The position numbers were made by a program, and so were the translations under genes. Below, one piece after another: positions 4,621-64,000 of a stretch of DNA of 64,000 nucleotides. This stretch comes from an uncultured Candidatus Babeliaceae bacterium (GTDB taxonomy: Bacteria > Babelota > Babeliae > Babelales > Babelaceae): contig OY969927.1 in assembly GCA_963704655.1 (NCBI GenBank), positions 704,001 through 768,000 of the forward strand, given 5' to 3'. Position 1 is the first letter of the stretch. The number at the start of each line of letters is the position of its first letter. Under the pieces are notes generated by a model. That model saw nothing but the letters and a program-made list of their open reading frames with translations. It had not been told where the DNA came from and ran no database searches.

Positions 4621-4686
4621 GCCGCCCGCATGGATTCGACCATGCTCACCACGAGCGGCCGCTCACACTGAGCGAAGTCGAAGTGT
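4621..4686. repeat. REP-like palindromic repeat family A, doublet
   Basis: GCATGGATTCGACCATGCTCACCACGAGCGG/CCGCTCACACTGAGCGAAGTCGAAGTGT; near reverse complement of 36090-36152. Confidence 0.9.
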
Positions 4687-7357: not shown

Positions 7358-7393
7358 GCCGCTTAACCCTTCGACAGGCTCAGGATGAGCGGC
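7358..7393 (-). repeat. family A repeat, single
   Basis: Plus strand GCCGCTTAACCCTTCGACAGGCTCAGGATGAGCGGC. Confidence 0.9.
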
Positions 7394-7407: not shown

Positions 7408-8601
7408 ATGAAAAAAGCAAAAGAACAAACAGCAGTTGTCTATATAATCACAAAACTTGAATTAGGCGGCGCACAAAAAGTGTGTCTTGCACTTTTTAAT
7501 GGCGTAGAATCACCAGAATATCAAACACATCTTATATCTGGTGCCGAAGGGGTATTAGCGGCTGAAGTAAAAAACAATCCACATGCACATCTAACACCAA
7601 CCATGCGCCGCGAAGTGAGCATGTTTGGCATTTTTACCGAAATTAAAAACTTTTTTGCACTGATCAAACAGTTAAAAACGCTTAAAAAAGAATATGCGCA
7701 TATTATCGTGCACACGCATAGCACAAAAGCGGGTATTGTCGGCCGTTGGGCAGCGTTCTTTGCCGGTATCAAAAATATTATTCACACCGTGCATGGCTTT
7801 GCATTTCATAACTTTCAATCATGGTTTACCTGGACTGCGCTGTATATTCCCGAGCTTATCACCAGCTTTATTACTACAAAGTTTGTCTTTGTCAGCCAAG
7901 CAGATGCACAAACAGCAATGCGCCTGTTCCCGCGCATTAAGAACAAAAAAGTTCTTATAAGAGCAGCTATAGATGACCACCATTTTATCGCAACGCACAA
8001 ACAGATGGTAAGCAAATCAGTGCGCCAAAGCGCACCAAAAGAGCATGTGCACCCTTTTATTATTGGTACTATCAGCTGCTTCAAACCACAAAAAAATCTC
8101 CTTGATTTACTTAAGGCATTCGAGCTTGCCTATAAACAAGACCAGAATATTCGTTTAGAAATTATAGGTGACGGCCAACAACGGCCCGCGCTTGAAGCAT
8201 TTATTAGTCACCATAAATTAGAAAAAGTAGTCACACTTCACGGTTGGCAACTAGACGTTGCACCAATTATGAAACGGTGGCACATCTTTGCGCTCAGCTC
8301 TCTGTGGGAAGGTTTGCCATGCGCTATTATTGAAGCTCGTTTATTAAAATTGCCTATAATAAGTTACAGAATTGGCGGCATTAGTGATGTTATTCACCAT
8401 GGCGTAAATGGTTTTTTATATGATGCAATAAATAGTGCGTCAAAACGCACCAATTGGCAAAAATTAGCACAAGGCTTTCTCATGCTCGCACATGACGCTA
8501 CATTATATGCAACTCTTGCACAGTATCCTGATAACTTACAAAATTTTACGCATGACGATATGATAAAAAAACATAAAGAACTCTATCAACAATTGCAATA
8601 A
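7408..8601 (+). CDS. GT4 glycosyltransferase
   Basis: LGGAQKV, HTHSTKAG, HTVHG, SSLWEGLPCAIIEA. Confidence 0.9.
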   Translation: MKKAKEQTAVVYIITKLELGGAQKVCLALFNGVESPEYQTHLISGAEGVLAAEVKNNPHAHLTPTMRREVSMFGIFTEIKNFFALIKQLKTLKKEYAHIIVHTHSTKAGIVGRWAAFFAGIKNIIHTVHGFAFHNFQSWFTWTALYIPELITSFITTKFVFVSQADAQTAMRLFPRIKNKKVLIRAAIDDHHFIATHKQMVSKSVRQSAPKEHVHPFIIGTISCFKPQKNLLDLLKAFELAYKQDQNIRLEIIGDGQQRPALEAFISHHKLEKVVTLHGWQLDVAPIMKRWHIFALSSLWEGLPCAIIEARLLKLPIISYRIGGISDVIHHGVNGFLYDAINSASKRTNWQKLAQGFLMLAHDATLYATLAQYPDNLQNFTHDDMIKKHKELYQQLQ

Positions 8602-19426: not shown

Positions 19427-20254
19427 ATGATCTTTAAAAAACTGTACACTATACTTTTTTGCGCTGCTCTTTTTGGTTGCGTATACGCAGTGTGGCTCTA
19501 TTACCGCTACACGCACTACAATAAACTCGCAAATCTTCAGCAAGAAATTCCGCAAGAAAAACGCATTAAGCATCTTGGCATTATTATGGACGGCAACCGC
19601 CGCTGGGCAAAATCGCATGGCTATAAGCCGTGGATTGGGCACAAGAAAGGCGTTGAACCCGTACGCACCACACTTGAATTTTGTATCAAAAATCAGATAC
19701 CGTACCTTACGCTCTATGTCTTTTCTTTGGAGAATTTTAATAGGCCCCAAGAAGAGCTGTCTTACTTATTTGATGTACTTGCACAGCAAATTGCAGACCA
19801 AGAGCTTGATAAACTCTTTAAAGAAGGCATTAAAGTACGCTTTATTGGTGAACGTTCACTGTTTCCTGAAAAACTTAAACCGCTTATTGAAGATATAGAA
19901 AATAAGACGCAAAACGGCACCAAACTGACCCTTAATCTACTTTTTTGCTATGGCGGCCAGCAAGAAATAGTCGCTGCATGCAAAAAAATCGCCCAAGAAT
20001 GCACAAATGGCATTTTAAAGCCTGAAGACATCACACCTGAACTCTTTGCCGAACAGCTCTGGAGCGGCCCTGTTCCACCCCCCGATTTAATAATAAGGAC
20101 GGCCGGAGACCAACGATTAAGTAATTTCCTGACTTGGGGTTCAGCCTATAGCGAACTCACCTTCTTGCCCTGTTTTTGGCCCGAAATAACCGAAAATAGG
20201 CTTGCGGCAACCACCGCAGACTACTACAACCGTAAACGCACCTTTGGCCGATAA
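19427..20254 (+). CDS. uppS: undecaprenyl diphosphate synthase
   Basis: HLGIIMDGNRRWA, FSLENFNRP, YGGQQEI, PDLIIRTAGDQRLSNFL. Confidence 0.95.
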   Translation: MIFKKLYTILFCAALFGCVYAVWLYYRYTHYNKLANLQQEIPQEKRIKHLGIIMDGNRRWAKSHGYKPWIGHKKGVEPVRTTLEFCIKNQIPYLTLYVFSLENFNRPQEELSYLFDVLAQQIADQELDKLFKEGIKVRFIGERSLFPEKLKPLIEDIENKTQNGTKLTLNLLFCYGGQQEIVAACKKIAQECTNGILKPEDITPELFAEQLWSGPVPPPDLIIRTAGDQRLSNFLTWGSAYSELTFLPCFWPEITENRLAATTADYYNRKRTFGR

Positions 20255-20355
20255 ATTCTTCATTTCTAGCCCCCATTTTACAATTAATTCCTATTTTGTT
20301 ATTATTAAATAGTAATAAAAAAATAGAAAGATATCTAAAAAATAAAGGAAGTTTT

Positions 20356-20742
20356 ATGAAAAAAATAGTAGCAATCTTAATTCTTACACTGACAAGCCTA
20401 TTGCCATCGTCCACTCAGGCGTCCACTGAGGCATTTAATGTACCATTATGGGGAATCGCCGCGCAAGCGACTATAGCCTATATACCTTTAATGCTCTCTG
20501 ACCCTGTTCTGAAAGACCGACCATCGATTAGTAATATGTTATATTCCAGAATGTCATATCGTACCAGAACCGCGCTTCTTCTGACGTCTGTGATTATAAG
20601 CACATCAAGTTTTCTTGACCTTGCTGATTCACGTGGATTTCTGGGCTTGTTACACAAAGCTGAGTTGTTACCTGAAGATTCAAGTAACTTATACCAATCA
20701 ATAATAGCTATCGGTCTTATTTCTATTTACGCATTATCATAA
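20356..20742 (+). CDS. hypothetical secreted/membrane protein
   Basis: Start MKKIVAIL after AAGGAA; signal peptide and TM segments. Confidence 0.6.
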   Translation: MKKIVAILILTLTSLLPSSTQASTEAFNVPLWGIAAQATIAYIPLMLSDPVLKDRPSISNMLYSRMSYRTRTALLLTSVIISTSSFLDLADSRGFLGLLHKAELLPEDSSNLYQSIIAIGLISIYALS

Positions 20743-20777
20743 ACAACTAAATATATCTTAAAATTTCAGGGTTTTTT

Positions 20778-20925
20778 ATGAAAAAAATAGTAGCAATCTT
20801 AATTCTTACGCTGGCAAGCTTTTTTGCCAGCATCCACTCAGGCATTTAATGCACCATTTACGGGAATTTTTGGCAGAAGTAGTTATAGCCCAAATATCTT
20901 TAAAGCTTTCAGAAAAGATTCGTGA
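20778..20925 (+). pseudogene. frameshifted paralogue of 20356..20742 (5' part)
   Basis: Near-identical first ~90 nt; extra T in a T6 run shifts the frame; end approximate. Confidence 0.7.
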
Positions 20926-20965
20926 GGTGGCCTTAAGTATAAACTGGGATTGTTACAAAAATGGG

Positions 20966-21202
20966 GATATTACCCCTGCGCTCTTCAATGGCCAACTTTG
21001 GGGCCAACTTTGGATGCCTAATTCACCCTGATTTAATAATCAAGACGGCCGGAGACCAACGATTAAGTAATTTCCGATTTGAGAGTTCAGCCTATAACGA
21101 ACTCACCTTCTTGCCCTGTTTTTGGCCCGAAATAACCCCGAAGAAAAACTTGCCGCAACTATAGCAGACTTCTATAAACGCAAACGGACATTTGGCCGGT
21201 AA
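20966..21202 (+). pseudogene. degenerate duplicate of the uppS 3' end
   Basis: DITPALF..QLW / PDLIIKTAGDQRLSNF..SAYNELTFLPCFWPEIT / ADFYKRKRTFGR* with frameshifts. Confidence 0.9.
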
Positions 21203-22286: not shown

Positions 22287-22886
22287 ATGAAAAAACTAAT
22301 GTTATTTTTTGCCGGTATAGTTTTTTGGTCGACCATGCAGGGATTCGATGAATCCTTAAGGCCATTTATCCCTTTTAAAGCCGCTGATGAATTTACCGAG
22401 AAATCACTCGAAATAACTGAAAAATTTAAAAGGACTAACCGAAATGCTATAAATTTCCCATTCAAAGCATTTGAGATCTTTTGCAAAAATGAAGTGGACT
22501 CGATTCTTATAACAAATCCTGAAAAAACAAAGACCTTTGGATCGTTGGTATATTTATTTTTTAATAGCTCGATAGAAAAAAATGATCAACACAATCCAGC
22601 CTATATTTATATAACAAACATCAAAATTACGCGCCAATTGCGCGGCAACGGCTTGGGGTCAGCACTTTTTAATTATGTTCTGCATAAACAACACCCAGAA
22701 AAAATATCCTATATTGAACTTGCCTCGGCAGCATCTGACTATGAATACGAAAAGATCCCGCATGCAAAAGCGCGTGAGCGACTCAACAATTTTTATAAAA
22801 ATCTAGGTATGGTTAAAAAAATTGGCACGGTAAATCAATATATCCTGCATCTTGATACCACAAAAAAAATAAAAGGGGCACCATGA
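22287..22886 (+). CDS. GNAT acetyltransferase with signal peptide (1/7)
   Basis: LRGNGLGSALF motif A; LNNFYKNLGM. Confidence 0.75.
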   Translation: MKKLMLFFAGIVFWSTMQGFDESLRPFIPFKAADEFTEKSLEITEKFKRTNRNAINFPFKAFEIFCKNEVDSILITNPEKTKTFGSLVYLFFNSSIEKNDQHNPAYIYITNIKITRQLRGNGLGSALFNYVLHKQHPEKISYIELASAASDYEYEKIPHAKARERLNNFYKNLGMVKKIGTVNQYILHLDTTKKIKGAP

Positions 22887-23335
22887 AAAAAATAATATCA
22901 TCACTCTTATTCTTCTTTAGCTTCATAGTACAAGCAAATCCTGTAGAGATAACTGAAGAATTTTCACTAAAAAAAGAGATCAATGGTAAACGTATTTATG
23001 TATCGCTTTTAAAAGGTTCTCAAAAAATAGGCATTGCTAGCGGAACGGAATTTTTAGAGTACATAACTCTGGGGGTTTTGAATGTTTTAGAAAAAAAAGA
23101 TCGCAAGAATGGCAATGGTTCACGGCTTTTAAAAGAATTTTTAGCCTATGCACAAGAACGCAATAAGCTCGTGTTAGCAAAAGTGTATCCTATGGACTGT
23201 AATAATGACCTAAAGGGACTTTTAATCTTTTATGAAAAGCGTGGAGCTCAGATCATCAACGCTTCATATATTGATAAAGAAGATGGAATTGAAAAAGCCA
23301 TAATAGCGTTCCAAAAACACGTTACGCAGGCATAA
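22883..23335 (+). CDS. GNAT acetyltransferase with signal peptide (2/7)
   Basis: RKNGNGSRLL; LLIFYEKRG. Confidence 0.75.
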   Translation: MKKIISSLLFFFSFIVQANPVEITEEFSLKKEINGKRIYVSLLKGSQKIGIASGTEFLEYITLGVLNVLEKKDRKNGNGSRLLKEFLAYAQERNKLVLAKVYPMDCNNDLKGLLIFYEKRGAQIINASYIDKEDGIEKAIIAFQKHVTQA

Positions 23336-23853
23336 TGAAAAAAATAATATCAACTTTTTTATTATTCTTTACCATCTTGCTACCAGCAAATCCCGTAGAT
23401 ATAACTAAAGAGTTTTGCACAACAACTAACTTCGAAATGGGTTCTGGATTCAAAATCTTTTCAGAAAAAACATCTTTTTATAAGCGCCCTGCTCTATGCA
23501 TAACTATTAAAAATCAATCAGACGGAGCAAAAATAGGCGAAATCTCTTATTCAAAAAAACAATCCCCCGATAAAAGCACATATCATAATGTTGTTGAAAG
23601 TATAGCCATTGAGGAAAATTTTCAATCAAAAGGATACGGCTCACTTTTATTAAAATATGCTTTGGCTCAATGTTCCACAAAAGAATGTCTGGGAACAAAT
23701 GTTTTTGCAACAACCACAAATTCAAGTGACCCAAATGATTACAAACGCCTCAAAGCTTTTTATATACGCGCCGGTGGCATTCTTGAAAATAATTCTGAAA
23801 CAAAGCTTACAGGAAGATTCAACTTTCCATCGCACTACACGGAGAAAGCATAA
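23335..23853 (+). CDS. GNAT acetyltransferase with signal peptide (3/7)
   Basis: FQSKGYGSLLL; LKAFYIRAGG. Confidence 0.75.
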   Translation: MKKIISTFLLFFTILLPANPVDITKEFCTTTNFEMGSGFKIFSEKTSFYKRPALCITIKNQSDGAKIGEISYSKKQSPDKSTYHNVVESIAIEENFQSKGYGSLLLKYALAQCSTKECLGTNVFATTTNSSDPNDYKRLKAFYIRAGGILENNSETKLTGRFNFPSHYTEKA

Positions 23854-25023: not shown

Positions 25024-25057
25024 CCGCTCATCCTGAGCTTGTCGAAGGGTTAGGCGG
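25024..25057 (+). repeat. family A repeat, single
   Basis: CCGCTCATCCTGAGCTTGTCGAAGGGTTAGGCGG. Confidence 0.9.
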
Positions 25058-25077: not shown

Positions 25078-25482
25078 AGTGATTAAGGTGACCAATAAGC
25101 CAGATTCTGTTACACCCAATTTCTTGGGCATATGGCAACCATTTCTCTGAGCGATACACCCGCATAATAATTCTACTACGCTCTTTCGAGCTTCGAAGAA
25201 CAGGCCGGAACGAATACCGTATATGCTGCTTGATCTTGCTCCAGGTAGGGTTTGCCGCCCTCAGCTAGTCACCTAACTGAGCCGTGCGCTCTTACCGCAC
25301 ATTTTCACCCTTACAAGCGCCTAAGCGCGAGCGGTCTTGTCTCTGTGGCACTTTCCATGATTTACATCTTCTGCAGCTTTTCAACCGTAGATACCATCTT
25401 CGTTTGGAGTCTGGACTTTCCTCATTACGCCATAGCTCAATGAGCGACGGCAAACGCGATTGCCTAGGCTACCTTAACCACC
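25078..25482 (-). ncRNA. rnpB: RNase P RNA
   Basis: Minus strand GAGGAAAGTCC, GAAAGTGCCACAGA, GGCAAACCC..CCTGGAGCAAG, ACAGAATCTGGCTTA; P1 pairing GGTTAAGGTAGCC/GGTCACCTTAATC. Confidence 0.95.
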
Positions 25483-25614: not shown

Positions 25615-26178
25615 ATGAATTTTAAGAACTTTTTTCTATTATTCTCTGTGATCATAGCCACGACCCACGCTCAAGACCCAGAATTAGGTGATATTACCCA
25701 GGAATTTTGTAAGGTAACTAATACACCTGATACTATCTGCGCACAGTTTCAAGCTTTTAAAAGAAAGCTAACTCCCGCCAGAACGGAAGTGGAACTTTTC
25801 AAAAAAGTGGTCAAAACACCAAATAGCCTCGAACTCGAGCCTTCTGAACCAGAAAGACAAAAAATAGGGTATGTCGAATATACCAAAACTAAAGATAATG
25901 TTATTAGGGTAGAATGGTTAAAAGTTAATGACGATTTTCAAGGTAACAATTATGGCTCAAAATTATTACTGTATGCACTAGCACAATGCAATAATTGCCC
26001 TTATACCACCCTCATGGCCAGCCCATTTACCGCCAGATCCGATAGCCGACCTGAAAAATATCAAAAACTTAAACAATTTTATGCTAGCCATGGCGGAAAA
26101 GTCCTTTATGAAGGTTCCGAACACTGGGATGAATCCAAGCCCACTTATGCACGAATGTATTTTTCTGAGAATTTTTAG
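25615..26178 (+). CDS. GNAT acetyltransferase with signal peptide (5/7)
   Basis: DITQEFCKVTNTPDTIC; FQGNNYGSKLL; LKQFYASHGG. Confidence 0.75.
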   Translation: MNFKNFFLLFSVIIATTHAQDPELGDITQEFCKVTNTPDTICAQFQAFKRKLTPARTEVELFKKVVKTPNSLELEPSEPERQKIGYVEYTKTKDNVIRVEWLKVNDDFQGNNYGSKLLLYALAQCNNCPYTTLMASPFTARSDSRPEKYQKLKQFYASHGGKVLYEGSEHWDESKPTYARMYFSENF

Positions 26179-26201
26179 ACAAGTTAACGATAAAAAATAC
26201 C

Positions 26202-26726
26202 ATGAATAAAATATCCCACTACATATTAAGCATAAGCATTCTGATTGCATTTCAGATAAAAGCCGTTATTACTATAAGCACCACAACGAATATCACTGAA
26301 GAATTCTGTAAAGTTACTGAAACTCCAGATACCATCTGTGAAAAGTTTCAAGCATATAAAAGAGTATTTTATGATCGAATCCAAATCGACCTTATAGAAA
26401 AAAATACGCATAATGATATCGGATACGTATCGTTTCAAAAAGACAACAATAACAACATGCAGATAAAATCGTTAGAAATTGAACCTAAATTTCAAGAAAA
26501 CAAGCATGGCTCAAGATTATTACGCTACACGCTTGCTCAATGTACTGGCGCCTGTACCAAAACATTATTAAAAGCATACCCTTCTGCGGCATCAACAGAA
26601 AATCACGATCGGGAACTAGAACGATTAATAAAATTTTACGAAAGACATGGCGGTAAAATGCTTGATAGAGATCAAGAAGCTGCTCACTTCGAATTTAAAA
26701 ACCAGGGACAAAAGAATCATGCATAA
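26202..26726 (+). CDS. GNAT acetyltransferase with signal peptide (6/7)
   Basis: NITEEFCKVTETPDTIC; FQENKHGSRLL; LIKFYERHGG. Confidence 0.75.
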   Translation: MNKISHYILSISILIAFQIKAVITISTTTNITEEFCKVTETPDTICEKFQAYKRVFYDRIQIDLIEKNTHNDIGYVSFQKDNNNNMQIKSLEIEPKFQENKHGSRLLRYTLAQCTGACTKTLLKAYPSAASTENHDRELERLIKFYERHGGKMLDRDQEAAHFEFKNQGQKNHA

Positions 26727-27915
26727 AAAAATTTCTACCTATTTAACTATTACAGTAAGCGTGTTCATGCTTTTAAGCGCCTGCAGAAACAAAAAAGTAA
26801 AATTAACCATTCAAGCACCTCAAGCTATGCCGGAATTTTTTGATATGCGCCCAACGACAGAACATATTTCATATCTGTATGCTCCGGGCATGATGAACAC
26901 CGAGCTTGGCATGGGTAGATATTGCCCAGAATTTACGGCCTCTACCGGTGAAAAAGTCACGTGGAGATCGGGCGGACAGGTTATCGGCCAACCACACAGC
27001 GCGGTGGTATTTCCAGAGATCGATCTCAGAAAACCAGATTATTTCACAATAAATCCGATTATGATGCTTATTAATGGCATGCGCCAAGATCTTGCACCTT
27101 TGGCTTTACGCTTTATGAAAGATGGCCTTGATTTTACCGTTATTGATAATCCAGATTCACCATTATCAATAGCAAATTATAGCTTCAATTTTGGCAAGGC
27201 AAACTTAGGCCAAAAAAACGACATTAAAACATTACATAAAGCCTATAACAATCATATAGAACGATACCCAAATACCGGCGTTATTATGTATGGCGATTCG
27301 CGCGGCGCAGCAACTATTTTTAATTTTATCGCGCTCCATAAGCCACAACAGGTAAAAGCTGCAGTTCTAGACGGTATTTTTGACAATATCCCGCACACGG
27401 TGAAACATTTTGCGTATACCGATAAACGCGCATGTGAAGAAGACAGACTCTACAGCATCGTACGCTTTATGATGGGAAGCTACAAACATGATGGCATTAA
27501 TCAACGTGAATGCGCAGAGATTATTGCAGATGATATCCCGCTTTTAATGGTAATATCACTCAAAGACGGCCTTGTGGCACCACAATCTGCCTTTTATTTA
27601 TATAACAGACTCCGTGACCGTGGCCACCAAAAAATTCATTTACTTGTCTTAAAAAGAGCATTGCACCCAGCGTATATGATCACTGACGCACAGGATAAAA
27701 AAGTCTATGAAACAGTTGTGCACGCATTTTACAAAAAGTATAACTTGCCGCACAATACTGCACTGGCTTTAGAGGGACAAAAAGACTTTGATGCTACCCA
27801 GCCAACAGCAGAGTATCTTCAAGTTACCTATAATTTGCCAACTTGTGCATTATGCGATGCAACTCAGCCAGAAAAAGTAAACGGCAAAAAGATTAAAAGA
27901 ACCATAAAAAAATAA
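26719..27915 (+). CDS. alpha/beta-hydrolase lipoprotein
   Basis: Lipobox LLSAC; GDSRGA nucleophile elbow; start at MHKK overlapping the upstream stop. Confidence 0.75.
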   Translation: MHKKISTYLTITVSVFMLLSACRNKKVKLTIQAPQAMPEFFDMRPTTEHISYLYAPGMMNTELGMGRYCPEFTASTGEKVTWRSGGQVIGQPHSAVVFPEIDLRKPDYFTINPIMMLINGMRQDLAPLALRFMKDGLDFTVIDNPDSPLSIANYSFNFGKANLGQKNDIKTLHKAYNNHIERYPNTGVIMYGDSRGAATIFNFIALHKPQQVKAAVLDGIFDNIPHTVKHFAYTDKRACEEDRLYSIVRFMMGSYKHDGINQRECAEIIADDIPLLMVISLKDGLVAPQSAFYLYNRLRDRGHQKIHLLVLKRALHPAYMITDAQDKKVYETVVHAFYKKYNLPHNTALALEGQKDFDATQPTAEYLQVTYNLPTCALCDATQPEKVNGKKIKRTIKK

Positions 27916-27930
27916 ATCTAAAGGGACATT

Positions 27931-28503
27931 ATGAATTTCAAATATTTTTTTGCATTATCTTTTTTCGTTTTACCTCAAGCAGTAACACTTGAAATAGAAA
28001 AAACAGATATCACAGAAGAATTCTGTTGCGTAACTCAAACACCAGATACAATCTGCGCTCAACTTCAAGTATTTCTTCAAATAAGTCGTTTCACTGACAA
28101 CAAAAAAATCTTCAAACAGGAAGTCCAAATTAAACGTAAAAATGATCAAAAAGAAATTGGTACTATATCCTTTGAGCAACAAAAATTCGAGAAAACAGAT
28201 CCCGACTATCCCGACTATATCCTTAAAATACGCGAGCTTGAGGTCGAACCTGGATCTCAAAAACAAGGCTATGGCAGTAAATTGTTAAATTATACTCTTT
28301 CTCAATATTGTGGCTCGACATGCGATGGTGCATATTTAGTCGCCCATGCTTTTAGGGCACCTGAAAGTCAAAGAATAGTGGAACTTGAAAAACTAAAAAA
28401 ATTCTACAAAAAACACGGTGGCGAAGAACTCCCTGTACCTTCACGCGAAATACCTAGAGATGACCCAACAAGGGCTAAATTTGCATTTAAAGAAAAAAAA
28501 TAA
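27931..28503 (+). CDS. GNAT acetyltransferase with signal peptide (7/7)
   Basis: DITEEFCCVTQTPDTIC; SQKQGYGSKLL; LKKFYKKHGG. Confidence 0.75.
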   Translation: MNFKYFFALSFFVLPQAVTLEIEKTDITEEFCCVTQTPDTICAQLQVFLQISRFTDNKKIFKQEVQIKRKNDQKEIGTISFEQQKFEKTDPDYPDYILKIRELEVEPGSQKQGYGSKLLNYTLSQYCGSTCDGAYLVAHAFRAPESQRIVELEKLKKFYKKHGGEELPVPSREIPRDDPTRAKFAFKEKK

Positions 28504-28845: not shown

Positions 28846-28920
28846 CGCGCTAACCCTTCGACTGGCTCAGGATGAGCGAGCCTTTAGCATCGAGCTTGAC
28901 GAGATGTCAGGATGAGCGGC
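28846..28920. repeat. family A composite repeat
   Basis: CGCTAACCCTTCGACTGGCTCAGGATGAGCG + CATCGAGCTTGACGAGATG + TCAGGATGAGCGGC. Confidence 0.8.
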
Positions 28921-32406: not shown

Positions 32407-32849
32407 AATGTATCTTTACAACGTTGATAATAGGCAAGTAATGAATCTTGCAGCTCTTTATTAGCTAATTTTTGAACGGTTTTTAAAGCCTGTAAACTCG
32501 GCTTTCGTGGTGCAGATTGATGCTCTATTTTTTTTTCCTTTGGTGCGCTTTGGCGCACTATTTTCATAACCCAAATACAGCGAATCGCTGTGAGCGTAAA
32601 CCCTTCTGGGTAAAGTTTATATAAAGCACTGTTCATGCGCTGCAACATCATGCGGGATAATGCATGCAATTCATGCATCCAATGGCTATCATAGACTCCA
32701 ATAATAACGGTCGAGCCATTAATTCGCTCAAGACGAGCACGGGTTGAAAGATCACCCATAATTGTTGACCATTCAGCTCGCAATTTCATTTGCCAGTCGT
32801 GCTCAGTGCGTGATAAAATTTGATCAACTAAACTTGTTATTGGTTTCAT
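32403..32849 (-). CDS. DciA/DUF721 family protein
   Basis: L..EWSTIMG.L, V.DSHWMHEL pattern. Confidence 0.7.
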   Translation of the reverse strand: MKPITSLVDQILSRTEHDWQMKLRAEWSTIMGDLSTRARLERINGSTVIIGVYDSHWMHELHALSRMMLQRMNSALYKLYPEGFTLTAIRCIWVMKIVRQSAPKEKKIEHQSAPRKPSLQALKTVQKLANKELQDSLLAYYQRCKDTL

Positions 32850-34455: not shown

Positions 34456-34522
34456 GCGCTCAAATGGTTCGATTTCACTCACCACGAGCGGCCGCTCGCC
34501 CTGAGCATAGTCGAAGGGTGCG
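34456..34522. repeat. family A doublet
   Basis: ATGGTTCGATTTCACTCACCACGAGCGG/CCGCTCGCCCTGAGCATAGTCGAAGGGT. Confidence 0.85.
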
Positions 34523-36089: not shown

Positions 36090-36152
36090 ACACTTCGACT
36101 TCGCTCAGTGTGAGCGGCCGCTCGTGGTGAGCGTAGTCGAATCCATGGCGGC
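36090..36152. repeat. family A doublet
   Basis: ACACTTCGACTTCGCTCAGTGTGAGCGG/CCGCTCGTGGTGAGCGTAGTCGAATCCATGGCGGC. Confidence 0.9.
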
Positions 36153-43043: not shown

Positions 43044-43132
43044 AGGAGAGAGGGGGATTCGAACCCCCGATTCCTTGTAACAGGAATAACCGCTTTCGAG
43101 ACGGCCGCTTTCAACCACTCAGCCATCTCTCC
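43041..43132 (-). tRNA. tRNA-Ser(CGA)
   Basis: GGAGAGATGGCTGAGTGG...GCCGT-CTCGAAA-GCGGT, long variable arm, GTTCGAATC, TCTCTCC-T-CCA. Confidence 0.95.
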
Positions 43133-44795: not shown

Positions 44796-44831
44796 GCCGC
44801 TCATCCTGAGCTCGTCGAAGGGTTAAGCGGC
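44796..44831 (+). repeat. family A repeat, single
   Basis: GCCGCTCATCCTGAGCTCGTCGAAGGGTTAAGCGGC. Confidence 0.9.
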
Positions 44832-48835: not shown

Positions 48836-48921
48836 CCGCTCCCTCGATACATTCTACTTCGTAGAACACTCGGGATGCACGGATTATGGCCGCTCATCCT
48901 GAGCATGTCGAAGGGTTAGCG
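48836..48921. repeat. family A doublet (long-hairpin variant plus short variant)
   Basis: CCGCTCCCTCGATACA-TTCTACTTCGTAGAA-CACTCGGGATGCACGG ... CCGCTCATCCTGAGCATGTCGAAGGGTTAGCG. Confidence 0.85.
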
Positions 48922-54716: not shown

Positions 54717-54786
54717 CCGCCCGCATGGATTCGACTACGCTCACCACGAGCGGACGCTCATCCTGAGCCTGTCGAAGGGTTAGCGG
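54717..54786. repeat. family A doublet
   Basis: CCGCCCGCATGGATTCGACTACGCTCACCACGAGCGG-ACGCTCATCCTGAGCCTGTCGAAGGGTTAGCGG. Confidence 0.9.
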
Positions 54787-60709: not shown

Positions 60710-63067
60710 TTACCACGTAAAGCGGGCTTCGACTTCACCACCAAAGTCACCACGCTCGTCGCGCATGCCACGAAGCGTTATTTCGTCAGTTGGCTTATAA
60801 GCAACTTCAATAAGTACGTCTTCACTTAAACTAAAGTTTTGTTGAATTAATGCACTTAAATTTTCATTTACTTCTATTGCAAGGGCTGCACGAAGACCGC
60901 CACGGCTTGTCTGGTCACTAAAACGGGGAACAATTTTTACATTTTGCAATGGCCCGAGCCAATTTTTAAATCCGTCAGATTCAGTGAACTCATCTGAAGA
61001 ACCAACGATGAGTTTTTCAACCATCCCCATAGAAGATAACGGCATCACCAACGATAGCGAACTATCTGGCGACCCACCAAATAAAAGGCCTATAATTTGT
61101 TCTTCTTGCAAATTCGGAGTTGACTGAAAGGAAATAACTGGGTTTTGAGCCGTGCCATCAACCGTTAATGTTATTGCATAATTTTTTATTACCGCAGTTG
61201 CACATAGCTCAATTGCCGGGTCGTCACGTTCATTATCAACAAAAAATATTTTTCCATATTGAATCTCAAGCGGCTTATAAGGAAAGTTTAATGTTCCTTG
61301 CAATAACTCAATGTGCCCATAGAGTTGCGGCTGCGCGATAGTACCAAGCACCTGCAATTTAACCTGTGCGCGCGCTTGTAAAAATGGAGTTTTTATTTCA
61401 ACGGGCTCATATGAATGTATCGTTACATCAAGGTCTGCTGTCTGCGCCAGTGGGTGACTTTCAAAAGGGTTAATGGTTGCAGCAACAATATCATTACCTA
61501 CGCCACCAGAAAATGGATTGTTTCGAATGTGACATTTTTTTATCGTACAAATACCTTGTACCTTTGATCTAGATTCTTTTTGGTATTCAAGAACACACGC
61601 ACCAGAAAGCTGTGCAAAAAAATCTTTTGCTCGGTTAATAAAAAAGTCCTGCATCATGATCGGCACATGCGCAGACTGCACGTTATTGTGCGCATCAAAA
61701 CCAAGCGTACTTATGCCACTTATTAATCTGCCACGGTCCGTCTGCAACGTCGTGTCACGTAACAAAAGATACGTTCTATCAGAAGCATATAATGCAGTAG
61801 TATGAAGCGAACGTAAAAAATTATAGGTGTAAGGAATCCGAACATGTAGCCCAGAAAGATCTAGTTCACTCTGCCAATATTTTGTAGTTCGCATGCCCTT
61901 TACAATAAAGGGTGCTTGGTACTGTAACAAATCACCATATGGAGATAGTAACTTGAGATACTCCTGTGGCACTATGTTCTTTTGCAAAAGGGAATAAAAA
62001 AAGTCTGTTGCGCCGCTTACTGTATAGCGACTATCATAATATATCTGTGCTTCTAGTTTATGCTTATTATCATCATGAATAGTTACCTTTACATGGTCAG
62101 GCTGTGAATCATAATCTAAATTAAATAATAACGATTGTAGCGTAATAGATGCTGTGCCCTGAAGATCTGTCGCTACTGATAGCGTGCCGGCAGAAGTTAT
62201 TGCATTAAACTGATACGCATTTTTTGGTGCGATAGTTTTTGAAAGGCTAAGTTCAGTTTTTTGATCATCGTCCTTAAATGAAACTGATACATTATTATCT
62301 TGCACATCAGCACAAATTTTACCCGGGCACCACGAATCTTCTAAAGGATTACGTAACATAATGGTGCCATGTATATCTGTAAACGCCTTTTTTGTGCCCA
62401 TATCAGTAACTCTTTTTATCAATAGCCTTAGGTCCCGAGCAAGAAATTGATTCTTATAAGCGATATGATCTTGGGTAATAGTAAGACCGATATGTTGGTG
62501 ATTATCAATAAGATCTATAGCGCCGCTTACATTACATTCAAGGGCCGTGTCCGCATTAACATGAAGCGTAATTTTAGCATGCGGTATATGCAACTTTTCA
62601 GGAATAATAGGTATCACCATAACCTTTTCACGAATAAATGCCTGAACATGATCCACAATGGCAACCTTACCATCAACAACCTGCGTATCGATTTGCATAT
62701 CACCACAGGTAATAGTAAGAACAACCAGCTTCTCTAAAAAGAGTTTTGCCCAATTAACCGTTACAGTTATACTATCGCTTGTCCAAAACCAATCACGCCC
62801 TTTTTCAGGAAGCACCGTTACGTCAGTTAAAAAGATACTACCATGGAGTATATCTAGACGATCGACTTGCGCATTAAAATCGCAGTCAAAAGCTTTACTT
62901 GTGCCTTGGCAAATAGCTGTTTCAAGATATTCGATTGTTACCGGGTCATGCATAACGATAAACAAAGATGCAAGCACTGTTAAACATATTGCACTTATAA
63001 AAGCAATCAAAAACTGCACAAAAAATATACTATATTGTACCAATAACTTTATTAATAACTTTGCCAT
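60710..63067 (-). CDS. tamB: TamB (translocation/assembly module) family protein
   Basis: N-terminal TM, beta-rich; C-terminal GT..QP.L.G, DP.I.L.A, V.GTAQNP...F.S.P.L....I..LL. Confidence 0.75.
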   Translation of the reverse strand: MAKLLIKLLVQYSIFFVQFLIAFISAICLTVLASLFIVMHDPVTIEYLETAICQGTSKAFDCDFNAQVDRLDILHGSIFLTDVTVLPEKGRDWFWTSDSITVTVNWAKLFLEKLVVLTITCGDMQIDTQVVDGKVAIVDHVQAFIREKVMVIPIIPEKLHIPHAKITLHVNADTALECNVSGAIDLIDNHQHIGLTITQDHIAYKNQFLARDLRLLIKRVTDMGTKKAFTDIHGTIMLRNPLEDSWCPGKICADVQDNNVSVSFKDDDQKTELSLSKTIAPKNAYQFNAITSAGTLSVATDLQGTASITLQSLLFNLDYDSQPDHVKVTIHDDNKHKLEAQIYYDSRYTVSGATDFFYSLLQKNIVPQEYLKLLSPYGDLLQYQAPFIVKGMRTTKYWQSELDLSGLHVRIPYTYNFLRSLHTTALYASDRTYLLLRDTTLQTDRGRLISGISTLGFDAHNNVQSAHVPIMMQDFFINRAKDFFAQLSGACVLEYQKESRSKVQGICTIKKCHIRNNPFSGGVGNDIVAATINPFESHPLAQTADLDVTIHSYEPVEIKTPFLQARAQVKLQVLGTIAQPQLYGHIELLQGTLNFPYKPLEIQYGKIFFVDNERDDPAIELCATAVIKNYAITLTVDGTAQNPVISFQSTPNLQEEQIIGLLFGGSPDSSLSLVMPLSSMGMVEKLIVGSSDEFTESDGFKNWLGPLQNVKIVPRFSDQTSRGGLRAALAIEVNENLSALIQQNFSLSEDVLIEVAYKPTDEITLRGMRDERGDFGGEVEARFTW

Positions 63068-63552
63068 ACACTATTACGATAACGGTAAACACGAATATAA
63101 GAAAATGCTGAAACGGGGGTAGTTAATGCGTACTGTTCATATCCGTCTGTTATATACAGTGTTCCAGACTGTAACGTGCCATCAGGATGCGCACCTATCT
63201 TTTTATCTACAAAAGTAACCATTTGTGTAACAAGCTTTTGTGGTGAAGATGGCGGCCCATATACATCAGGTAATACCCCAAATCTAAAACCATCTTGCAA
63301 AGCATAACGACTGCCGTCATATATTAATGCTGAATTTACTTCATCAATAGTAATTTTTTGCTCTTTTTTTAAGCACGTTGCACGTGTTGCCGCAGTACGC
63401 AGCAACAGGCTCAACACAGCAACATCAGTAGCAAAAGAAGTGCCCTTAACGACATTATAACTTATAAATCCGATTGTAGAACAAACAAGTATTAACGTTA
63501 TTACCAGCATCAACTCAAACAGCATGAACCCTTGTCTGGCCATTCGAGCCAT
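63052..63552 (-). CDS. minor pilin / pseudopilin (FimT/GspH-like)
   Basis: RQG|FMLFELMLVI class III signal; ATG overlaps the GIY-YIG stop (TAATG). Confidence 0.75.
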   Translation of the reverse strand: MARMARQGFMLFELMLVITLILVCSTIGFISYNVVKGTSFATDVAVLSLLLRTAATRATCLKKEQKITIDEVNSALIYDGSRYALQDGFRFGVLPDVYGPPSSPQKLVTQMVTFVDKKIGAHPDGTLQSGTLYITDGYEQYALTTPVSAFSYIRVYRYRNSVWQSY

Positions 63553-63905
63553 TATTCGATTCCCTCTTGCGAAACTATGAAATCTGCATCGCAGCCGCTC
63601 GTGGTGAGCGTAGTCGAATCCATGCGGCAAGATTCTTCATTTTTGAATCCACCCCAACCATTACGTATTAATATCTCTTTTTTCTGACGCGTCCAGCGCT
63701 TTATTTTATGCTCTGCCACAAATGCCTCATCGCGTGTTTGAAATAACTCAAAATATTTTAATGTAACGGGTAGTCTATTTAATGTGTAACCCTTATACTT
63801 GCCTTCATTATGTTCGCATACCCTTTGTTCTAAATTATCTGTATGCCCAATATAATAAGAACCATCAGCACATTGAACGATATAAAAATAAAAACCTTCA
63901 TTCAT
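63552..63905 (-). CDS. small GIY-YIG nuclease (UPF0213/YhbQ-like)
   Basis: FYFYIVQCADGSYYIGHTDNLEQRVCEHN...YT...P...EA..AE..IKRW.R.KK; C-terminal tail reads through a repeat. Confidence 0.9.
   Translation of the reverse strand: MNEGFYFYIVQCADGSYYIGHTDNLEQRVCEHNEGKYKGYTLNRLPVTLKYFELFQTRDEAFVAEHKIKRWTRQKKEILIRNGWGGFKNEESCRMDSTTLTTSGCDADFIVSQEGIE
63594..63628 (+). repeat. family A repeat, left arm of a perfect 35-bp inverted pair
   Basis: GCCGCTCGTGGTGAGCGTAGTCGAATCCATGCGGC. Confidence 0.92.
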
Positions 63906-63925
63906 GATTTACCAAATTTTTTTAG

Positions 63926-63960
63926 GCCGCATGGATTCGACTACGCTCACCACGAGCGGC
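63926..63960 (-). repeat. family A repeat, right arm of a perfect 35-bp inverted pair
   Basis: Plus strand GCCGCATGGATTCGACTACGCTCACCACGAGCGGC, exact reverse complement of 63594-63628. Confidence 0.92.
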
Positions 63961-64000
63961 CTGTTAAAGTGATTTTATTATAGATAAATTACAATTAATA

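Follow-up and report, generated by a model that had tools for sequence, protein, structure and literature searches.

The closest described counterpart of the locus analysed here is the Ssn/NTS-SRM system, in which a stand-alone GIY-YIG nuclease is encoded between flanking hairpin repeats (PMC11893778, Chenal et al., Nat Commun 2025). The SsnA nuclease of Neisseria meningitidis cleaves ssDNA beside its flanking hairpin in vitro, does not act on RNA and modulates transformation; the same paper draws analogies with RAYT/REP and, for ssDNA, with IS200/IS605, and leaves open whether the gene-plus-repeat unit moves (PMC11893778). In the accessible part of the Minerva preprint, SsnA loci serve as a benchmark only. 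An initial annotation of the present locus, made from the sequence alone, had put forward a stand-alone GIY-YIG nuclease with its own flanking hairpins; this idea is therefore already in print, RAYT/REP analogy included.

The window, by which we mean the whole stretch of 64,000 nucleotides that was analysed, comes from an amoeba-associated bacterium with a genome of 1.3 Mb. Close to its end a 451-bp insert, surrounded by perfect 22-bp direct repeats, separates a pilin-like gene, whose 166-aa product gave no match in a Pfam search, from the gene of a PilB-type ATPase (PF00437, E 4.6e-140; Table 1). A repeat search found two 35-nt arms in the insert that are 100% complementary inverted copies of each other, 297 nt apart, and the minus-strand ORF that they frame continues through the downstream arm, with no stop ahead of it; both of these points had been made in the initial annotation and both were confirmed. 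The arms are not simple termini, because insert DNA extends 62 bp beyond the upstream arm and 22 bp beyond the downstream arm. A promoter scan at the element found 2 sites as against 2.9 expected. We consider it likely that the segment is most of an insertion carrying a GIY-YIG gene of the 'GSYYxGHTD' type framed by its cognate hairpins, and that it works in the manner of Ssn/NTS.

Table 1. Features of the element and of the other hairpin units, in window coordinates.
Feature	Position	Strand	Remarks
Upstream arm	63926..63960	-	A single full hairpin unit of the GTGG/CCAT subtype; its CCGCTC..TGAG..TCGAA strand is read in the direction of the gene
Downstream arm	63594..63628	+	Perfect inverted copy of the upstream-arm unit; inside the 3' end of the ORF
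GIY-YIG ORF	63552..63905	-	117 aa; stop codon (63552-63554) shares one base with the ATG of the next gene (TAATG)
Folded GIY-YIG domain (model)	63639..63893	-	Residues 5-89; strand-strand-helix-strand-helix-helix
22-bp unique spacer, insert DNA	63572..63593	-	Separates the downstream arm from the duplicated target
22-bp direct repeat copy 2, CGCAAGAGGGAATCGAATAATG	63550..63571	-	End of ATPase gene and pilin ATG
22-bp direct repeat copy 1	genome 768023-768044 (window scale 64023-64044)		Just beyond the window
A+T-rich unique insert DNA outside the upstream arm	63961..64000	-	First 40 of 62 bp; insert end at 64022 on the window scale
Spacer, upstream arm to ATG	63906..63925	-	20 bp
Pilin-like gene, downstream	63052..63552	-	166 aa, N-terminus MARMARQGFMLFELML...; ATG overlaps the ATPase stop in relatives
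Head-to-head pair, GTGG minus and ACAC plus	4631..4686	.	Joined at GAGCGGCCGCTC
Solo unit, ATCC subtype	7366..7386	-	
Solo unit	25030..25050	+	Adjoins the 3' end of the RNase P RNA gene
Solo unit	28853..28873	-	Orthologous spacer of G008 without unit: 3 nt between flanking alignments vs 128 nt here
Head-to-head pair	34464..34519	.	Missing in G009 and G008 where the orthologous genes meet
Head-to-head pair	36090..36145	.	Missing in G009 and G008, where both genes overlap (ATGA)
Solo unit	44803..44823	+	
Solo unit	48896..48916	+	
Head-to-head pair, GTGG minus and ATCC plus	54726..54780	.	

Each arm is a unit of a hairpin family with the formula CCGCTC-N4-TGAG-C-N2-3-G-TCGAA-N4', that is, a CCGCTC tag, a 4-bp stem, an internal TGAG/TCGAA motif and a short or extended apical part. 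There are 135 such units in the genome, compared with 8-17 in five Markov-1 simulated genomes, and a strict scan of the window found 15, the two arms and 13 others. The figure of 13 other loci that had been given for the repeat is thus correct as a count of units, which lie at 9 places since they form four head-to-head pairs and five singles. When up to 3 mismatches were allowed, the 35-mer itself occurred 5 times in the window (0.00 expected from 100 shuffles). Within the window the other copies do differ from the arms by a few bases, as had been noted (2-3 mismatches), but this does not extend to the whole genome, where the exact 35-mer occurs six times, four of these away from the window arms; the arms therefore carry the commonest sequence of their own subfamily. 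The 4-bp stem was fully paired in 103 of the 129 core matches, whereas shuffled partners gave a mean of 38.9 and a maximum of 52, and compensatory stem types include ATCC/GGGT, GTGG/CCAT, ACAC/GTGT, GTAC/GTAT and AAAC/GTTT. Pairing was counted by script on the core matches because a MAFFT alignment of the 15 window units had placed two different stem registers in the same columns. The 5' CCGCTC is conserved at 79-98% and its 3' partner at about 50-65% only. Folding energies of single units were unexceptional (z 0.00 to -2.28 for five units).

The genome contains five genes of the same nuclease clade at five different, unrelated sites, and all five are framed by inverted hairpins (four by strict regex, the fifth by eye), as against 0.069% of 200,000 random intervals and none of the five other GIY-YIG genes in the genome. 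The same arrangement is seen around 84 homologous loci, which were selected for their similarity to the query (the best 80 of 292) and among which related genomes are not independent samples: the core motif was found 47 times on the plus and 27 times on the minus strand within 200 bp upstream, and 10 and 51 times, respectively, within 200 bp downstream. From 200 to 800 bp out the counts fell off gradually, reaching at most 13 per strand on the downstream side, and beyond 1 kb on either side they were 0-2 per 200-bp bin. A check of homologue flanks for inverted repeats had been proposed; in a strict scan of the 82 clade genes with full flanks, this genome's five included, hairpins were present on both sides of 38, on one side of 21 and on neither side of 23, and many of these 23 loci carry variant forms. 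Pairing of this nuclease and this hairpin recurs in Dependentiae, Sphingomonadales, Burkholderiales, Chloroflexota, Myxococcota and others, at least six phyla. Likewise, in a phylum sample of 151 genomes a clade homologue was found in 27 of the 37 genomes with at least five hairpins but in 14 of the 98 with none by the strict motif. We conclude that the association of nuclease and repeat is real and specific, and that the hairpins of the cassette orient convergently around the gene across phyla. The clade may explain the presence of the hairpin repeat in six or more phyla.

The only Pfam family matched by the window protein was GIY-YIG (PF01541, E 6.1e-17, residues 5-76), and an NCBIfam search gave just a sub-threshold group I intron endonuclease match (TIGR01453, E 0.032, far below the cut-off). 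The modelled fold ends at residue 89, the tail from 90 to 117 is disordered (block-mean pLDDT 41-48) and no second domain was seen in the structure model beyond the 85-residue core; this single-domain architecture belongs to the class of ~90-100 aa, and the paralogues in the five-copy genome are of 98-106 aa. Residues Y8, Y17, Y18, G20, R28 and H32 are invariant in an alignment of 26 clade members, from which L008, L010, L015, L016, L066 and L075 were left out. Describing the protein as UPF0213-type, as had been done, is reasonable in that the UPF0213 proteins EF2693 (1ywl) and BH0048 (1zg2) are its best solved relatives both by sequence (E 1.1e-14 and 3.5e-14) and by Foldseek (E 3.8e-06 and 1.1e-04), with Slx1 next after UPF0213; however, E. 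coli YhbQ scores only 35 bits against it, about the same as the Ssn-like clade. To our knowledge, UPF0213 proteins have no association with repeats.

A quick tree (SH-aLRT 86-90) placed the window protein in a 'GSYYxGHTD...KGW(S/T)RxKKEAL' clade, apart from a 'GTLYIGVT' clade to which all three SRM-flanked genes found in five other genomes belong; these genes were used as stand-ins for SsnA/cd10448. In bit scores the window protein reaches 16-35 against the SRM-flanked stand-ins and at least 66 within its own clade. It could nevertheless fall within the looser homologue criterion of the Ssn paper (tblastn E < 1e-10). The two systems share a stand-alone GIY-YIG protein of ~95 aa, inverted hairpins that frame the gene and are also dispersed in the genome, a conserved 5' tag that orients each hairpin, and an IS-like architecture present in many phyla. 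They differ in that the SRM is CGTCA plus a simple stem, whereas the hairpin here has a CCGCTC tag and a TGAG/TCGAA core. The published SRM was found on both sides of none of the 82 clade genes with full flanks, none of which was classed as SRM-flanked, and in this genome the SRM regex HGTCWY..RNCYNB matched at chance level (4 matches, compared with 4, 6 and 1 in shuffles). Judged on these comparisons, the system of the 'GSYYxGHTD' clade is a putative sister of the Ssn nuclease-and-repeat systems with another hairpin. It would give, beside Ssn, a second nuclease-hairpin pair that is specific to its clade but has another recognition element, and it may offer a new ssDNA-cutting specificity. Literature searches returned no description of the CCGCTC-TGAG/TCGAA hairpin or of the 'GSYYxGHTD' clade.

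Other known systems resemble the locus less closely. REP/REPIN repeats are also short, palindromic and mostly intergenic, form inverted doublets and have an enzyme gene (RAYT) between inverted copies; unlike them, the present family has a GIY-YIG rather than an HUH enzyme, a CCGCTC rather than a GTAG tag, and five gene copies instead of one. The CGTC-tagged REP superfamily consists of tagged hairpin repeats described as having no dedicated transposase, but both tag and core differ from ours, and neither 'TCGAA' nor 'GIY-YIG' occurs in the main text of the paper on it (Di Nocera et al. 2013, PMC3733652). Fungal mitochondrial mORFs share with our locus a duplicated end of the neighbouring gene beside the insert; theirs is organellar dsDNA homing, however, and here the two 22-bp copies in the window genome are identical, so that no foreign allele is recognisable. 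The 'peel and paste' elements of IS200/IS605 recognise subterminal hairpins in ssDNA, which is the ground of the analogy mentioned at the outset. They use an HUH transposase and are not known to make a target duplication, whereas we see a 22-bp duplication, a GIY-YIG enzyme and no strand bias.

An empty site at the pilin locus was sought in relatives, as had been suggested, and all five same-genus relatives have one, with the ATPase stop overlapping the pilin start. We conclude that the insertion is recent. Three further hairpin sites, solo or paired, are empty in relatives (Table 1); solo hairpin insertions show no long duplication, and non-hairpin flanking duplications of 22-85 bp are found at other loci. 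At the grpE copy elsewhere in the genome, the duplicated gene end carries five differences, all at third codon positions. The features by which insertion sequences are generically recognised are thus present, namely a 35-nt perfect inverted repeat, a 22-bp direct repeat, an empty site in five of five congeners and five copies. The only ORF of the insert encodes the GIY-YIG nuclease, which is not of a known transposase class, and we know of no bacterial transposase of the GIY-YIG class. The event is a clean one, the site being empty in five congeners and the duplication perfect, and the question of mobility, left open for Ssn, is therefore directly testable with a defined 451-bp element. The word 'duplication' is absent from the main text of the Ssn paper (PMC11893778).

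By analogy with SsnA, we infer that the enzyme would bind and cleave the hairpin in ssDNA and would move both the cassette and the solo hairpins. What this small enzyme most likely recognises in ssDNA is the folded hairpin, oriented by its 5' tag, and it most likely nicks beside it; the cassette and the gene-less hairpins, 135 units in all, behave as insertion-polymorphic, mainly intergenic elements. The units show no replication-strand bias (72 vs 63 for all units; 49 vs 35 for solo units, p 0.16), which counts against such a scheme because a lagging-strand ssDNA mechanism might be expected to give some bias. A bolder reading, which we offer tentatively and regard as possible but doubtful, is that the 'GSYYxGHTD' clade and the CCGCTC-TGAG/TCGAA hairpin together form an autonomous, nuclease-only DNA element that inserts at gene junctions with long, variable target duplications (22-85 bp), seeds gene-less hairpins and is the source of the cross-phylum hairpin repeat. 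If this were true, it would be the first class of bacterial mobile element driven by a GIY-YIG enzyme. On this reading, places similar to the core of the hairpin may be preferred as targets; the duplicated 22 bp include AGAG-GGAA-TCGAA.

The alternative that survives best, although we think it unlikely, is a domesticated host nuclease that polices incoming or exposed hairpin-bearing ssDNA, natural transformation being one occasion; on this view the enzyme does not move the hairpins, which would serve the host as 'marks', and mobility would be incidental, via recombination. A proposal of this kind exists for the Neisseria SsnA, with its effect on transformation (PMC11893778), one copy here lies between PilB-type ATPase and pilin-like genes, and the hairpins cluster at gene junctions, only 30 of the 135 units falling within crude ORFs in a genome that is 87% coding. 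However, the position at the pilus locus is a single case and the insertion is recent, and the clade gene is missing from the same-genus relative G008. Moreover, the 1.3-Mb genome holds five paralogues, one of them interrupted by a stop, and stops are present in many of the homologues in relatives too, a pattern more in keeping with selfish elements than with a housekeeping gene.

Less probable still, and in our view improbable, is that hairpin pairs resembling MITEs are moved by other machinery, unknown or of the host, and bracket a GIY-YIG gene that is inert on them. The arms do not coincide with the exact ends of the insert, and 10 of the 37 hairpin-rich genomes in the phylum sample have no detected homologue, as a passenger gene would allow. 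Against it stand the flanking of all five paralogues, the coupling of one clade to one hairpin core across six phyla or more and of a sister clade to a different hairpin, and the outcome of profile searches for four transposase families (Y1_Tnp, TnpB-type, rve and DDE_Tnp_1), none of which was matched anywhere in the genome. The earlier remark that no RAYT is visible in the window accordingly holds for the whole genome, where the best Y1_Tnp match (E 0.15, 12.2 bits) is below the cut-off of 23.

It is very improbable that the hairpins act as RNA, in processing, stability or regulation, with the nuclease as their RNase. A covarying stem is equally compatible with RNA and many units do lie at gene ends, but relative to genes the units are found in either orientation, and at the nuclease gene they converge, which would make one member of each pair antisense. 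In addition, no Rfam family was matched by the arms at the gathering score (lax thresholds gave chance-level snoRNA matches, E 3.1 and 8.2), and SsnA is inactive on RNA (PMC11893778). GIY-YIG homing endonucleases exist, and the duplicated gene ends next to the insert are reminiscent of mobile ORFs, yet a classical free-standing enzyme of this type with one dsDNA target, the hairpins being unrelated terminators or RNA stabilisers, is likewise very improbable given five copies at five different sites, convergent hairpins on both sides of the gene across phyla, 0 terminator-like sites (0.5 expected) in 701 bp around the element (L004 150-850) and, in the structure model, no apparent DNA-binding domain beyond the 85-residue core.

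In low-depth contigs from four sequencing runs, neither an excised form nor a joint spanning the element was seen. L004 649-903 is covered by a single contig (run X2), which extends from the interior of the upstream arm via the leader into the ATPase gene with zero differences.

The initial annotation had described a GIY-YIG reading frame framed by inverted copies of a repeat, and this observation is real. A repeat search bore out the perfect inverted arms around the GIY-YIG core, and the ORF starts 20 nt past one arm and reads through the other, which therefore lies inside it. When up to three mismatches are allowed, the window holds five occurrences of the arm 35-mer, and 100 shuffles yield none. 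Among protein families the ORF matches only the GIY-YIG catalytic domain (PF01541; residues 5-76, E 6.1e-17). In an AlphaFold model built on 26 members of the 'GSYYxGHTD' clade to which the window protein belongs, residues 5-89 adopt the GIY-YIG fold, and residues 90-117, encoded by the arm and the sequence after it, are disordered (10-residue block-mean pLDDT 41-48). As this tail is arm-encoded and disordered in the model, and as the stop codons of the paralogues lie at or before the hairpin, the read-through looks incidental.

Coordinates of the cassette and of further features (window positions unless marked as genome positions)
Feature	Position	Strand	Remarks
GIY-YIG ORF, 117 codons	63552-63905	minus	at window end
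Two arms, 35 nt each	63594-63628 and 63926-63960		perfect reverse complements, 297 nt apart
22-bp direct repeat, copy 2	63550-63571
22-bp direct repeat, copy 1	genome 768023-768044		just past window end
Insert	63572 to would-be 64022		in gene orientation: 62 bp A+T-rich unique DNA, upstream arm, 20-bp spacer, ORF including second arm, 22 bp unique
Cassette copy L003	genome 474580-474900		last 48 bp of upstream gene on both sides
Paralogue L002	genome 375483-375746		cut by in-frame TGA
Truncated Ssn-like gene L005	genome 303626-303793
HN.G-type GIY-YIG genes	genome 231546-231788, 1291162-1413, 1292118-288
Composite GTGG-type units	genome 13964, 34812, 146793, 259538, 865262, 981985
GGTGCGC… palindromes	8007-8042, 8430-8463, 32530-32571
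Tandem paralogous small genes	16119-17267, 20080-21137, 22877-23416, 25691-28080
Hairpin unit	25030-25050		abuts 3' side of RNase P gene
RNase P RNA	25080-25476		187 bits
tRNA gene	43044-43132

The window copy is a recent insertion. It lies between the genes for a 569-aa PilB/GspE-type ATPase (upstream; PF00437, E 4.6e-140) and a 166-aa pilin-like protein without a Pfam match (downstream). In each of the five genomes from the same genus (G006-G010) the stop codon of the ATPase gene either overlaps the pilin ATG or lies immediately next to it with zero intervening sequence, four of them having a TAATG stop/start junction, so that the empty site sought in relatives upstream of the pilin gene is present in 5/5 congeners. 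Here the two genes are separated by 451 bp, flanked by a perfect direct repeat of 22 bp (CGCAAGAGGGAATCGAATAATG) that is single-copy in the relatives; the exact ends of the insert differ from the arms. The duplicated ATPase tail (…SQEGIE*) supplies the end of the ORF, and in this way the ORF and the pilin gene again overlap at their stop and start codons.

Non-hairpin direct duplications of 85 bp (4 mismatches), 29 bp (3) and 28 bp (2) were found beside clade genes elsewhere; most controls for such duplications reach no more than 14, with 38, 34 and 24 as the top three scores. For three sites in the window that hold solo or paired hairpins, the orthologous junctions in the congeners G009 and/or G008 are likewise empty, and no long duplication is evident at these three. 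No excised form of the element was seen in the sequencing runs, which gave just thin contigs. At L003, another GIY-YIG locus of this genome, the two 48-bp copies show five differences, each synonymous and in a third codon position, the pattern expected if one copy derived from another allele. Within the 22-bp target lies AGAG-GGAA-TCGAA, similar to the hairpin core TGAG-CNNG-TCGAA, and among duplicated targets at other loci that of L047 has GTCGAA and those of the L034 group have the complement of CCCTGAGC (CTGAGC). These likenesses in sequence hint that targets may be chosen by mimicry of the core, although they are perhaps due to chance.

The genome, a single contig of 1,298,077 bp with 38% G+C of which the window covers bases 704001-768000, carries 135 hairpin units by strict scan, compared with 8-17 in five Markov-1 simulated genomes. 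The consensus unit reads CCGCTC, 4 variable bases, TGAG, C, 2-3 bases, G, TCGAA and 4 bases pairing with the first four, and finishes in a weakly conserved T(A/G)GCG. Fifteen units lie in the window; the '13 other loci' initially counted there are indeed 13 units besides the arms, but they occupy nine places. It can be seen that the 4-bp stem is fully paired in 103/129 core hits, against a mean of 38.9 and a maximum of 52 after partner shuffling, and that it occurs in compensatory versions (ATCC/GGGT, GTGG/CCAT, ACAC/GTGT, GTAC/GTAT and AAAC/GTTT). Because the 5' CCGCTC is well conserved (79-98%) and its 3' partner only weakly so (50-65%), we regard the unit as an oriented, tagged hairpin. Its apical part ranges from a few bases to a long extra hairpin, and head-to-head pairs joined at GAGCGGCCGCTC are recurrent. 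The units are mainly intergenic (crude ORFs contain 30/135, with 87% of the genome coding) and show no replication-strand bias genome-wide (72 vs 63). The exact arm 35-mer occurs six times in the genome, so the arms represent the commonest sequence of their subfamily. No Rfam family fits the hairpin and the folding energies of single units are nothing unusual; judging from the sequence, TGAG and TCGAA could keep the stem continuous by tandem sheared G·A pairing, which the nearest-neighbour fold does not represent.

Several variants were noted. A composite unit, in which a GTGG-type hairpin has between TGAG and TCGAA an inverted second core whose CCGCTC is replaced by AGTTTAT, recurs at six genome positions, and an additional subfamily of 10 copies has CCTTTA instead of CCGCTC. 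A second small palindromic family (GGTGCGC…GCGCACTATTT) is present in the window; outside the window, one copy occupies a TGAG/TCGAA hairpin loop located upstream of genome position 375746.

A PF01541 profile search of the genome gave ten matches, five of which form one clade (…GSYY[VI]G[HQ]TD…KGWTRKKKEA…; 41-57% identity to the window protein). All five clade genes are framed by inverted hairpins, each pair of its own subtype: four have a convergent pair by strict scan, and in the fifth, inspection by eye shows an AGAG variant. Such a strict-scan pair flanks none of the five other GIY-YIG genes and 0.069% of 200,000 random intervals. The absence of a RAYT, at first reported for the window, extends to the whole genome, with no above-threshold match to Y1_Tnp; the TnpB-type, rve and DDE_Tnp_1 families likewise gave no match. 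L002 is the only one of the five clade genes to be cut by a stop, and it keeps near-identical flanking arms of a long-loop AGAG variant; stops are also present in many homologues from related genomes. A further GIY-YIG type (…HN.G…T…F.PW…) is represented by three small genes, none with a CCGCTC-TGAG/TCGAA hairpin. A tRNA gene closely precedes each of the first two, and the third follows the second at a distance of some 0.9 kb.

The five paralogues served as queries against a single genome of each species; homologous loci were chosen by similarity to the query, and the best 80 of 292 relatives were kept. These come from Dependentiae/Babeliales, Sphingomonadales, Burkholderiales, Chloroflexota, Myxococcota, Binatia and others; inverted copies of the TGAG/TCGAA core frame most of these 80. 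The Dependentiae/Babeliales relatives indicate where the organism itself belongs. At 84 clade loci, all from other genomes, the core motif was counted 47 times on the plus and 27 times on the minus strand within 200 bp upstream, and 10 and 51 times, respectively, within 200 bp downstream. It declines gradually from 200 to 800 bp, more slowly downstream (up to 13 per strand), to 0-2 per 200-bp bin beyond 1 kb on either side. By strict scan of 82 clade genes with full flanks, including the five from this genome, the hairpin stands on both sides of 38, on one side of 21 and on neither side of 23, with variant forms at several of the 23. Among 151 Dependentiae genomes, a clade homologue is present in 27/37 with at least five hairpins, 9/16 with 1-4 and 14/98 with none (odds ratio 16; Fisher p 1.6e-10, an overstatement because related genomes are not independent). 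No homologue was detected in 10 of the 37 hairpin-rich genomes, and 14 genomes have a homologue and lack the strict motif.

The closest characterised system to the window copy is Ssn. According to Chenal et al. (PMC11893778), hairpin repeats (NTS/SRM) flank most ssn genes, SsnA of N. meningitidis, like three homologues, binds its own flanking hairpin and cleaves ssDNA only, just upstream of it, and a conserved 5' flank sets hairpin orientation; NTS-ssnA-NTS is called 'identical to' an IS and a parallel with RAYT/REP is drawn. CGTC-tagged repeats had been described by Di Nocera et al. (2013) as being without a transposase. Ssn and the window copy both have a GIY-YIG gene framed by hairpin repeats with a conserved 5' flank; however, in the genomes compared, CGTCA-type SRM hairpins go with a 'GTLYIGVT' clade, unlike the CCGCTC-TGAG/TCGAA hairpin and 'GSYYxGHTD' clade seen here. 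The concept of a GIY-YIG nuclease with flanking hairpin repeats, which the initial annotation could not check against the literature, is thus already in print, whereas in the literature, including part of the PMC11893778 supplements, we found no account of this hairpin, the clade's association with it or an empty-site/duplication demonstration. The words 'TCGAA' and 'duplication' are absent from the main text of the Ssn paper.

A PF01541 search of five other genomes (four sphingomonads and one Anaeromyxobacter) divided their small GIY-YIG genes into two groups. Those of the 'GSYYxGHTD' clade have TGAG/TCGAA hairpins and never the published Ssn-related motif on both sides, and all three genes with CGTCA-type SRM hairpins on both sides belong to the 'GTLYIGVT…FT…W.R.WK' clade. 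A quick maximum-likelihood tree parts the clades (89 and 13 rows; SH-aLRT 86 and 90), the SRM-flanked genes standing in for Ssn on the other side. Bit scores of the window protein are 66 or higher within its own clade, 16-35 for the other clade and 35 for E. coli YhbQ. L005 in this genome is a truncated 'GTLYIG[IV]T' gene flanked by other short palindromes (CCCTGAGCGCGTCTCAGGG), with no SRM match.

By analogy with Ssn, the nuclease probably recognises the folded, CCGCTC-tagged hairpin in ssDNA and nicks beside it, and such nicks may underlie insertion of both the cassette and the gene-less units. Duplications this long and variable speak against a simple, fixed staggered cut; they would be compatible with insertion assisted by recombination at a nick or close to one.

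Elsewhere in the window, a hairpin unit adjoins the RNase P RNA gene, and the tandem paralogous small genes have signal-peptide-like starts (MKKI…) and share 77-93% identity.
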